Positions 39,801 to 42,800 of a DNA stretch of 64,000 bases are shown piece after piece (positions within the stretch are counted from its first letter, which is position 1; every line of letters starts with the position of its first letter). The stretch is from assembly GCF_057098645.1 (NCBI RefSeq), contig NZ_CM169472.1; one strand, written 5' to 3'. Position numbers: made by a program.

Positions 39801-42800
39801 CGTTAATGGTGACATCCTTTTCCGTCATCCATTTACCACCACGCTCAAGCTGAATCAGCAGGCGGACAGACGTCGGGTTACGGTCACCCTTTGAGGTGGT
39901 CTCCACCAGTGACTGCACCCCGAAGGTGACCCGCAGGCGGTCAATGTTCGCGGATGTAATGGTGCGCGTCACCGGCTTTGCCTTCGTCACTTCCACGCCC
40001 AGTGCGGTTTCAGCTCCGGAGGACTCAAAGCCTTCAGGTGGTGTCTGCTCCTGCTCCCCGGCGTGCCAGACCGCGGTCACACCATGTATCACAGGATTAC
40101 CGTCCGTGTCCGTCAGCGGGGTTTTGTTCACCAGGATACTCTGCAGCCCCTTCACCGGACCTTCAATCGGCCCTTCACCAATGGCGTCAATCACGCTCAT
40201 CATCTGCGTGGACTTAAGATTGTCCTTTGCCTCTACCGGCGTGTGCGCCTTGCCGCCCCCTTTACCCACTCTGTCCCCCTCTCCTGTCTGATGTCTGAAT
40301 CTGTTTATGCCAGAAAACAACAGGCACCCCGGAGGGTGCCTGTGTCATGACGGAATAAAATTTCTGAAACTCTTCACATTTCCGGCAATTGCCTGTAGCC
40401 GCAATAATGACGCTGCATTACTTTTTTGATGCCTGAAAAATAACTCCATAACGTTAATCTTCATCGTTCTCTCCCGCAGCTCCGCTAACTCTGCGGGATT
40501 TTTTTATTTTCATCCCTGCCCGATAACCACCACTTTCCCGTCTCCGCCCTCATCACGGGTGCTGATGTCCTGGGATATCCGTCGTGAACCAACCAGCATT
40601 TCACCGTAAGGCACCGGCATCGGGTTCCCCTGGGCAATCATGTTATCCAGCGAGGAAAAGTACGTGTTCTGTCTGCCGTTATCCGTGCTTTTGTACTCCG
40701 GTACTTTAGCCTTCGGGGCCAGCATCTGAGCCACACCACCCAGAATCATGCTGGCCCCCAGAGAAAACAGCATCGTGGTGGCAGAAAAACCACCGGCTGC
40801 CAGGGCTGAACCCCATAACGCCATTGATGCCCCGGCCGTGAAGAACGACCCCACGATGGCTGCCGCCCCCAGCACAATCTGCAGTCCGCCCTTTCCGGCC
40901 CCGGCCAGTCGCGGCACAATGTGGATGACCGTTCCCTCACCCAGCTGTTCGTGAAGACGGGCGTACACCGCCTCCGGTGCCGTGTCATCACCGGCAATAC
41001 GTATCTGGTACCAGCCTTCGTTCATCTGACGGCGGAATCCCGGCATCTGCATCGACAGGGCACGGATGGCTTCCGCTGCCGTGTTCACATACAGGCTGAG
41101 GCGGCGGCCAAATCGTTGTAAATCCCCGTGAAGGCAGATACGTGCCAGTGGCGGTGACGCCAGGCTGAATGCGTTCGTCGTTGCCATTTTTCGGAATACC
41201 TCTCCCGTTTACTCAGTTGTTCAGGCAGATGGTGAAGCAGTTCACCGTTGCCGCAGTATATGGCGGCATGATTGGCCACCGATGCGCCAAAGCAGCACAG
41301 CAGGATATCGCCCGCCTGTGCAGAGGACAGGGGCACCCGGTAAAAGCCTGTGACCGCCATATTGTCCAGGTAAAGGTTCTGACCGTTGCGCCACCAGTCA
41401 TCCTCACGCTCAAAATCCGGCATATCAATTCCCGCCAGATGGTAGGCATCCCGGAACAGCGTGTAACAGTCCGTCACCCCGTGCTCAAAGCGCCGTCCTG
41501 TCAGATGTGGCACACAGCGGAATTTATGAATTTCCCCCCGGCAGACCAGCCACCAGGACAGTGCACTTTTTATCTGCAGCCGCCGGTCGGCCTCGCTCAG
41601 CCAGGGCAGACCACCGGGATGACTGTGGACCAGTGCCACAATCTCCCCCTGCATTTCTGCCCGCAGCCAGTCCTCCGGCGACATCCGGAAATAATCTTCC
41701 GGCTCACCGGAGATATTCACGCAGGGAAAATATCTTTCCCCTTCCGGCGTTCTCACCACGAAGCCGCACGACTCCGCTGGCGCACATCGCCGGGCGTGCG
41801 CCAATATATTGCTATAGAGCATGAGAACTCCTGATAAAAACCCAGCCGAAGCTGGGTCATTTCGTTGGCAATCTGTTAGTAGTGATGCGGTGAAGGAGGT
41901 AATTCTTTATTCTTAAGTCTCATCCATGCGGAAAGATTCGTTGGTCCGTCTGGCTCATTGATATCAACATCTCGTGTGTGATTAATTAAAACGTCTCTCG
42001 CCATTCCAATAACATACGAGAACTCATGACCGTAGTCGTAGCATCTGCCGGAATAGTTCGATTGAATTTGTTTTAGCGCCGGATACAGTTCGCGGAATAA
42101 TGCCTGTGAGCGGTTGGCATAATCCCATAGCCATACAAGGCTGTTTGCTTCTTTTGCGGAAAGCTCGTTGGTGCTCTTCTCTTGTTTGCCAATGAATTCA
42201 CCTTCAAGCACTACCCTGTGGATGTACTCTACGGCAAGCGGGATTTGTTCAATTGAAAGCTCATCAATGCTGTCAATACCAAAACGCTGATGAACCATAT
42301 TGTATGCATCGTCATTGCGAAGTCCTTTCTTTCCTACCAGCATGTTTACTGCATCGCGTAGCGGTGTTCTTTCCTCAACAGTGGTTTTCTTTCCTTTTAC
42401 ATACTCGCCATGTTTGCGAATTGAAGGCAGAACTTCTGCTGTTACCCACTTGCGGAATTTGTGCGGGACTGAACCTTTATTGACTGCATCGCGGCAGCGC
42501 AGAACCAATGTATACATACCTGATTCGCTCACAATGCTTAGATTCTGCTCACCACCAAGGGTGTAACTTAAAGTTACTCCCTTTTCATCGTCATCAAGTG
42601 CAGTAAGCGCCTTGCGTGAGTTAGTCAAAGCTAAAGCATCACAAACATCTTTAGCTACAAACCACGGCTCACCGCACTTGTTGATGACGCGGATTTCACT
42701 GTCGCCGAATTTGAAGATAGTGAAATCGTTTTGTGCCTTTGCTATACTTTTCATGTCAATATTTCCTAAGCCGATTTGTTGATAACGAAGCCCTGACTGT

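Follow-up and report, generated by a model that had tools for sequence, protein, structure and literature searches.

The spacer between tail genes I and J of a lambdoid prophage as the very probable location of the gene for EcOnc22, an Hfq-binding small RNA

The locus described here raises the question of what is encoded by additional DNA lying between two neighboring tail genes of a prophage, a protein, an RNA or simply a signal. It is found in a stretch of 64,000 nucleotides from contig NZ_CM169472.1 (NCBI RefSeq assembly GCF_057098645.1), referred to below as the window, where it separates the tail assembly gene I from the host-specificity gene J. A preliminary description of the sequence had recorded at this place a 189-bp insert with a 39-amino acid open reading frame (ORF) behind an apparent ribosome-binding site (RBS), a GC palindrome and a reverse-oriented terminator, and had proposed either a small moron or a structure that limits the expression of J. 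We find that the spacer very probably holds the gene, on the plus strand, of the small RNA (sRNA) EcOnc22, with the 39-amino acid ORF being spurious.

All coordinates refer to the window as a whole, in which the tail genes are found on the minus strand. The small ORF, the palindrome and the plus-strand hairpin are all present where they had been placed, as seen in the ORF list and the terminator scan. The borders of the spacer were drawn differently. The GTG at 40269 is taken as the start of J, as the resulting N-terminus, VGKGGGKAHTP..., is lambda-like and RefSeq has the same start in identical or near-identical loci; a TTG at 40320, offered by the ORF list, was rejected on the same grounds. 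The spacer therefore runs from 40270 to 40509 and measures 240 bp rather than 189. In lambda I and J do not abut, contrary to what had been supposed; a spacer of 60 bp with its own hairpin lies between them, and the net extra DNA in the window is consequently about 180 bp, near the original figure. The structure prediction that had been suggested for the locus was carried out, and each of the two strands gives a more stable fold than shuffled sequences do (z of -2.6 and -3.0). In a stretch of 1.4 kb the terminator scan reports 4 terminator-like sites, where shuffles give 1.0 +/- 1.0.

The spacer is identical at 240 of 240 positions to that of VT1-Sakai, which is the Stx1 (Shiga toxin 1) prophage Sp15 of E. 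coli O157:H7 Sakai. It is in Sp15 that cross-linking and analysis of cDNA (CRAC) with Hfq placed EcOnc22, with a peak at 2902714-2902774 on the plus strand (Tree et al. 2014, Mol Cell; PMC4104026, Table S2). The RNA runs at around 85 nt on Northern blots, is destabilized in an hfq deletion and is made in uninduced O157:H7; its homologues are EcOnc23 in Sp14 and EcOnc24 in Sp11 (Tree et al. 2014, PMC4104026). The published peaks are numbered on an older version of the Sakai genome, on which those of EcOnc22, EcOnc23 and EcOnc24 lie beyond the J starts of Sp15, Sp14 and Sp11, respectively, by 22-24 nt, and the coordinates were converted before being placed on the window. The shift between versions is +142 at stx2, as derived from the placement of AsxR, the peak coordinates and the end of stx2B in NC_002695.2, because the statement that AsxR lies "282 bp 3' and antisense to stx2AB" (Tree et al. 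2014, PMC4104026) fits under no other offset. At the EcOnc22 locus itself, the shift is +135, as given by sequences obtained through cross-linking, ligation and sequencing of hybrids (CLASH). Were the published peak read unshifted on NC_002695.2 it would coincide with the minus-strand hairpin near J, a placement that was rejected as the two shifts demonstrate the older numbering. Once converted, the Hfq-CRAC peak occupies positions 40428-40488 of the window.

The strand of the RNA follows from the Northern probe: its first 23 nt match the window exactly at one place, 40453-40475 of the minus strand, which makes EcOnc22 a plus-strand RNA. An RNase E-CLASH read assigned to EcOnc22 at 2902717-2902749, GCCTGAAAAATAACTCCATAACGTTAATCTTCA (Waters et al. 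2017, PMC5286369), corresponds to 40431-40463 of the same strand. Further CLASH fragments correspond to plus-strand sequence within 40430-40480, and one read ends in ...CUGCGGGAUUUUUUU, that is, with a 3' end of seven U residues. EcOnc22, EcOnc23 and EcOnc24 of Sakai share with the window the position in the I-J spacer, the strand and the terminator, and for EcOnc22 the sequence itself; the published prophage differs from the present one, which adjoins ssrA and has its J gene cut by an insertion sequence (IS).

The feature is thus already known as EcOnc22, and it has neither a RefSeq annotation nor an Rfam family. An Rfam search returned no match at E<=1 in 39800-41000 and, in a scan of the whole window, none at this locus at the gathering score. 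No other name for a tail-operon sRNA emerged from a search of the literature, and a 2021 review lists the targets of EcOnc22 as unknown. Three other identities were considered and discarded: the anti-sRNA pair AgvB/AsxR, our first guess, which is located at the PR' moron site and has no sequence in common with the locus; HnrS (bioRxiv 2025), which is EcOnc10-12; and the sRNA of a machine-learning paper on O157 outcome, which is EcOnc27. One interaction table in supplementary file 4 of Waters et al. 2017 (PMC5286369) labels the EcOnc22 locus, at 2902729-2902766, as 'asxR2'; this may be a slip of naming, given that AsxR and EcOnc22 are without common sequence. The features of the locus and its surroundings are collected in Table 1.

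Table 1. Coordinates of the EcOnc22 locus and of neighboring features in the window
Feature	Position	Strand	Basis or remark
Host-specificity gene J, 5' part	38781..40269	-	Start GTG 40269; IS3-family junction at about 38.78 kb (approximate)
Terminator-type intrinsic hairpin near J (the 'GC palindrome' of the preliminary description)	40343..40313	-	Stem of 10 bp ACAGGCACCC/GGGTGCCTGT, loop UCCG, tail UGUUUUCU
39-aa ORF with apparent RBS	40345..40464	-	ORF list; judged spurious
AT-rich CRP-consensus-like inverted repeat	40360..40381	.	TCTGA-N6-TCACA on plus strand, center 40370.5, upstream of sRNA promoter
-10-like hexamer AATAAT of predicted sRNA promoter	40403..40408	+	Inferred from conserved spacing to the box
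EcOnc22 sRNA gene (Hfq-binding, antisense to tail operon)	40415/40431..40505	+	Spacer identity, Hfq-CRAC peak, probe, CLASH
EcOnc22 intrinsic terminator (the 'reverse-oriented terminator')	40473..40505	+	CCCGCAG 40473-79 / CTGCGGG 40491-97, 11-nt loop, A + U7
Tail assembly gene I	40510..41187	-	Pfam Lambda_tail_I, 1.6e-16
Antirepressor with Bro-N and P22_AR_C domains	41876-42754	-	
sar antisense RNA	42756-42822	+	Rfam match, 66.7 bits; 2.3 kb from EcOnc22 locus
Arc-like repressors of immI-like moron	43018-43200; 43280-43534	-; +	

The 3' part of the RNA is the best defined. Transcription ends within the U-run 40499-40505, only 5 nt short of the gene I stop codon at 40510-12. The terminator scan reports the plus-strand hairpin as 40481-40497, and the stem and T-run in Table 1 were read by hand. 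That this hairpin is a genuine terminator, as had been suspected, is borne out by the conservation of its stem and by the CLASH read that stops in U7. Among 37 distinct versions the stem is nearly invariant while the loop varies freely, and one variant has a compensatory stem, CCCACAG/CTGTGGG. The predicted fold of EcOnc22 is an open, single-stranded 5' body followed by the terminator (z about -3.8). A conserved hairpin at the 5' end of the 91-nt model was found on inspection to be unsupported by the variants. The 5' end is less sharply placed. A start 7 nt after the -10-like hexamer, at about 40415, is predicted and would give an RNA of 91 nt, whereas four CLASH fragments share a 5' end at G40431, which corresponds to 75 nt; the latter could be a product of RNase trimming in the U-run.

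Upstream of the RNA lies a predicted promoter and, ahead of this, an AT-rich inverted repeat. The -10-like hexamer is found exactly 24 (rarely 23) nt past the TCACA half-site of the repeat in 64 of 66 distinct cassettes, as TATAAT (31), AATAAT (17), TATCAT (13), GATAAT (2) or GAAAAT (1), and the center of the box is 32.5 bp before the hexamer. The window copy has a weak -35, TTCCGG at 40380-85; another variant (locus L004 of our collection) does score as a sigma-70 promoter on the sRNA strand, TTTGCA-16-TATAAT. Conservation around the box spans 40345-40385, and the box is invariant in 14 copies collected by BLAST that are 73-100% identical. The core recognized by CRP is TGTGA-N6-TCACA. Read on the minus strand the box is TGTGA-N6-TCAGA, and it agrees with this core at 9 of 10 positions; a single occurrence of the pattern is seen in the window, where 0.26 would be expected. 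On sequence grounds the box may be regarded as a candidate CRP site, as a lead only. Readings as an UP element or as other sites, compared by eye with consensus sequences, were none of them convincing.

The I-J junction was compared across related prophages, as the preliminary description had recommended, in an unbiased sample of 76 junctions selected solely by a protein I identity of 96-100%. None of the 76 lacks the plus-strand terminator. Their spacers fall into three length classes, of 235-259 bp (n=38), 342-343 bp (n=14) and 848-903 bp (n=24). In the short class nucleotide diversity, pi, reaches 0.2-0.37 across the promoter and the body of the sRNA, falls almost to zero at the stem and T-run of the terminator, and is 0.04-0.13 over 40345-40385 and the hairpin near J, matching the low level of the coding sequences (CDS) of I and J; at the CRP-like box region it is 0.04-0.10. 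Within the variable bodies two short motifs recur, CTCC in 54 and ATCTT in 62 of 66 variants.

Some prophages harbor the cassette as a tandem array between I and J, with two units in locus L107 and three in L080, each unit consisting of the box, the promoter, the sRNA body and the terminator. The hairpin near J occurs once per array and the box with every sRNA unit, and the box thus belongs to the sRNA transcription unit and not to the hairpin. The units in these two arrays differ in their sRNA bodies, and one type of unit has another terminator stem, CUCCCGU.../...ACGGGAG. The longest spacer class (24 of 76) additionally carries an antisense sodC gene (Sod_Cu, 8e-32) with a terminator of its own. 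This moron shares with EcOnc22 the I-J site and the antisense orientation, and it adjoins or partly replaces the sRNA cassette; in contrast to EcOnc22 it is protein-coding, and it is not present in the window. In these loci (L140-L219), sodC adjoins the 3' part of the sRNA, and in the class of around 851 bp it is found in place of the sRNA promoter and box.

How EcOnc22 acts can be proposed in outline. Transcription would proceed from the promoter with the -10 hexamer at its fixed distance from the CRP-like, AT-rich box, to give an RNA with a single-stranded body that is first A-rich, AAAAAUAAC, and then CU-rich. The body would present a conserved core resembling an anti-Shine-Dalgarno (anti-SD) sequence, (A/C)CUCC(U/A)U, accompanied in most variants by UUAAUCUUC. 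A stretch AAA-AAU-AAC in the RNA is an ARN-type motif, and such motifs have been discussed for the binding of Hfq (Tree et al. 2014, PMC4104026). As its likeliest mechanism, the RNA would with the assistance of Hfq base-pair in trans with mRNAs, typically at or near their ribosome-binding sites, and the variable flanks would set the specificity for targets between variants. We regard the case for this trans-pairing mechanism as evenly balanced. The predicted duplex with yjbJ, at -24.1 kcal/mol, compares with -12.8 +/- 3.0 kcal/mol for shuffles, although the comparison was made post hoc.

A number of observations weigh against the assignment of the spacer to EcOnc22 or against parts of the account built upon it. 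The Northern probe, as printed, deviates from the sequence by a few bases in its last third, possibly through extraction from the PDF. Both the promoter and the 5' end, whether at 40415 or at 40431, are predictions, and the promoter of the window copy, with its poor -35, was not called by the promoter scan. Class II CRP sites are centered near -41.5, and class I sites at -61.5 and further upstream; the box would be centered at -44.5 with the predicted start or at -60.5 with the CLASH 5' end, and neither position is canonical. The CLASH partners of the RNA (the yjbJ CDS, ECs5349, ECs4701, ECs4397 and rRNA) are represented by 1-2 reads each, and the segment that would pair with yjbJ is not conserved among the variants. 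Finally, the diversity of the sRNA body could reflect weak constraint as well as a diversifying function.

An alternative role, closer to the regulatory structure originally imagined, is that the element acts mainly in cis. Either the antisense RNA would pair with the late I-J mRNA and lead to its cleavage by RNase III or RNase E, or the minus-strand terminator would stop transcripts that are not antiterminated before they reach J; in both cases the expression of J and of the genes downstream would be limited or uncoupled, and the effect could extend to the late mRNAs of sibling prophages. Any late transcript does contain, in its I-J part, the perfect complement of EcOnc22, so that some antisense effect on this part of the mRNA is possible and, from the geometry of the two genes, would be unavoidable wherever both RNAs coexist; genomes with up to nine related copies would also suit an action between siblings. 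The terminator is strong. Its stem-loop (40343..40320) has 10 pairs, 7 of them GC, the U-run is on the minus strand only, and the whole precedes the J start by 44 nt. Over 16 distinct versions of the hairpin, 98.8% of cells are paired; there is one double change from C-G to U-A, and all 10 one-sided changes give G.U wobbles that pair only in the minus-strand RNA. The pattern supports a minus-strand hairpin, though it is suggestive only, being built from few independent events in the sequence. In the spacers of 342-343 bp, a non-homologous minus-strand terminator is found in the place of the hairpin.

Several results nevertheless speak against such a primary role in cis. The pairing of EcOnc22 with the translation-initiation region of J is no better than that of shuffled RNAs. 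The J gene in the window has already been destroyed by an IS, and the cassette is intact. Lambda, which is without any sRNA cassette here, has a comparable hairpin in its own I-J spacer (L220 143-208, equivalent to lambda 15442-15507), GAAACCGCC-UGCG-GGCGGUUUU followed by GUCAUUU, with a folding energy of -21 kcal/mol and a z of -3.0. Like that of the window this hairpin is GC-rich and then U-rich, lies upstream of the J RBS and is on the strand of the tail genes, but its stem sequence is different; placed just before the J RBS, it was not flagged by a simple terminator scan. Our reading is that the hairpin near J belongs to the ancestral tail operon, as an intercistronic structure of the terminator type, and lies outside the inserted cassette. 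Late transcription in lambda is antiterminated by Q and would read through a terminator of this sort. Taken together, we consider it unlikely that the element acts mainly in cis.

A second possibility is that the minus strand has an sRNA of its own, of around 84 nt, starting near 40397, with its seed in the conserved block and its end at the hairpin near J. The block and the hairpin, 40313-40385, do form the best conserved part of the spacer, and their layout of an AU-rich stretch, a terminator and a U-run is that of an Hfq-bound sRNA. Such an RNA would moreover have been missed in the CRAC study, where sense-strand Hfq peaks within 100 bp of a CDS were filtered out (Tree et al. 2014, PMC4104026). 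Against this, no promoter was found on the minus strand by the promoter scan, the hairpin sequence is absent from the CLASH reads, and in the tandem arrays the block is repeated with each plus-strand unit and is not then followed by a minus-strand terminator. A minus-strand sRNA is therefore given a slim chance.

In place of EcOnc22, the spacer could also be a protein-coding moron, with the 39-amino acid ORF made as a micro-protein. The ORF has an RBS-like GGGAGA 5 nt upstream of its ATG and the hairpin right after its stop codon, and in phage PhiR12_4 a 32-amino acid ORF at the same place is annotated as hypothetical. It does not, however, behave as a gene when 83 distinct IMG/VR copies of the module are compared. 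The codon aligned to its ATG is ACG, ACA or GCG in 30 of the 83, the length from start to stop breaks the frame in 40, premature stops are common, and the full 39 codons are kept only in the sub-lineage to which the window belongs. No Pfam match was found for the ORF. The demonstrated sRNA has a CU-rich body, and it is the reverse complement of this body that supplies the apparent RBS and ATG; the ORF is an antisense image of the body and not a gene, and a micro-protein is very improbable. Some variants contain another tiny ORF, MSRQKK..., of 7-24 amino acids behind an AAGGAG that is the complement of the CUCCUU core of the sRNA (40420-40445); it is not found in the window copy and is not conserved. 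A type I toxin-antitoxin system, in which the plus-strand RNA would be antisense to a small toxic peptide from the minus strand, deserves next to no credence, for although a small ORF does overlap an antisense sRNA and terminators face outward on both strands, the ORF is not conserved and is without a Pfam match, and its translation, on reading, is unlike a hydrophobic membrane toxin.

With EcOnc22 as the preferred identity, the proposal of a small moron holds in one part and fails in another: additional, self-contained cargo is present between I and J, but this cargo is a non-coding gene for an Hfq-bound sRNA and not the 39-amino acid ORF. In this respect EcOnc22 resembles AgvB and AsxR (EcOnc01/02) and HnrS (EcOnc10-12), which are likewise short, Hfq-bound, multicopy sRNAs of enterohemorrhagic E. 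coli (EHEC) prophages with intrinsic terminators, and non-coding morons. AgvB and AsxR also combine a conserved with a variable part; in the EcOnc22 cassette, it is the promoter scaffold and the terminator stem that are conserved. None of these RNAs is similar to EcOnc22 in sequence; the conserved 3' region of AgvB and AsxR, of about 42 nt, GUAUCUCAUGCnAUUGCCCGAACCC..., has no match in the window at up to 3 mismatches. Nor do they share its location in the tail operon: the PR' moron site holds AgvB and AsxR, and HnrS is found in other prophages. A further parallel is provided by the lambda OOP and P22 sar RNAs, which like EcOnc22 are short, are antisense to a phage mRNA and end at an intrinsic terminator. 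OOP overlaps cII and sar overlaps ant, in coding or RBS sequence, and the cis targets of both are established. In contrast, EcOnc22 overlaps an intercistronic spacer only, is bound by Hfq and enters into hybrids with mRNAs of the host.

The surroundings of the locus contain a number of other elements. An IS3-family element interrupts J after about 500 codons (window 37842-38790), with an ALIL frameshift pseudoknot at 37842-37958 and the rve transposase orfB at 37884-38774, and the prophage is tail-defective through this IS in J, with the sRNA cassette nonetheless intact. The tmRNA gene ssrA is located at 32746-33108, a few kb from the tail end of the prophage, which appears to be integrated at the ssrA site. 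A moron similar to P22 immI is found between tail genes L and K (41876-43534), and it is to this that the antirepressor, sar and Arc-like repressor rows of Table 1 belong. Also in the window are a Phe leader, RyfD and, at 3404-8414, an rRNA operon.

Of 5426 complete E. coli genomes, 801 carry the spacer; the median is 3 copies and the maximum 9, and in those genomes the spacer has no annotated feature. A scan of species representatives with the pattern of the box found E. albertii; the remaining matches were tiny contigs, one contig from a metagenome-assembled genome (MAG) and chance matches in unrelated MAGs, and a pattern requiring exact matches would miss diverged copies in other genera. 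I-J fragments were seen in two contigs of 460-546 bp, from Asaia platycodi (L226) and Parendozoicomonas haliclonae (L228), and in a Collinsella MAG contig (L227), one of the three with an IS3-family end; these are probably assembly contamination. The distribution points to an element of Escherichia prophages, mostly lambdoid phages of the Stx and EHEC types. A wider picture may also be drawn, which as a whole we hold to be doubtful. The I-J junction would be a slot for rapidly diversifying antisense Hfq-sRNA cassettes, 1-3 per prophage and at as many as nine loci in a genome, all with a common scaffold of CRP-like box, rigidly spaced -10, anti-SD core and invariant terminator stem. Such cassettes would retune host mRNAs and would also target late tail mRNAs in their I-J part, among them those of sibling or incoming phages; prophages would in this way interfere or communicate with one another through sRNAs, in dependence on carbon status.

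The published account of EcOnc22 (Tree et al. 2014) is without a promoter, a structure, a description of the family or a target. What is added here is a precise position for the RNA, the dismissal of the ORF as a gene, the architecture of the cassette with its CRP-like box, the tandem arrays and the site shared with sodC. A verified, multicopy sRNA gene has been without an entry in RefSeq or Rfam, with the consequence that its antisense image is sometimes called a hypothetical protein, as in PhiR12_4. The description of the cassette, from the promoter scaffold with its CRP-like box and the variable body with its anti-SD core to the tandem arrays and the sodC site, provides a handle on the regulation and the targets of EcOnc22.

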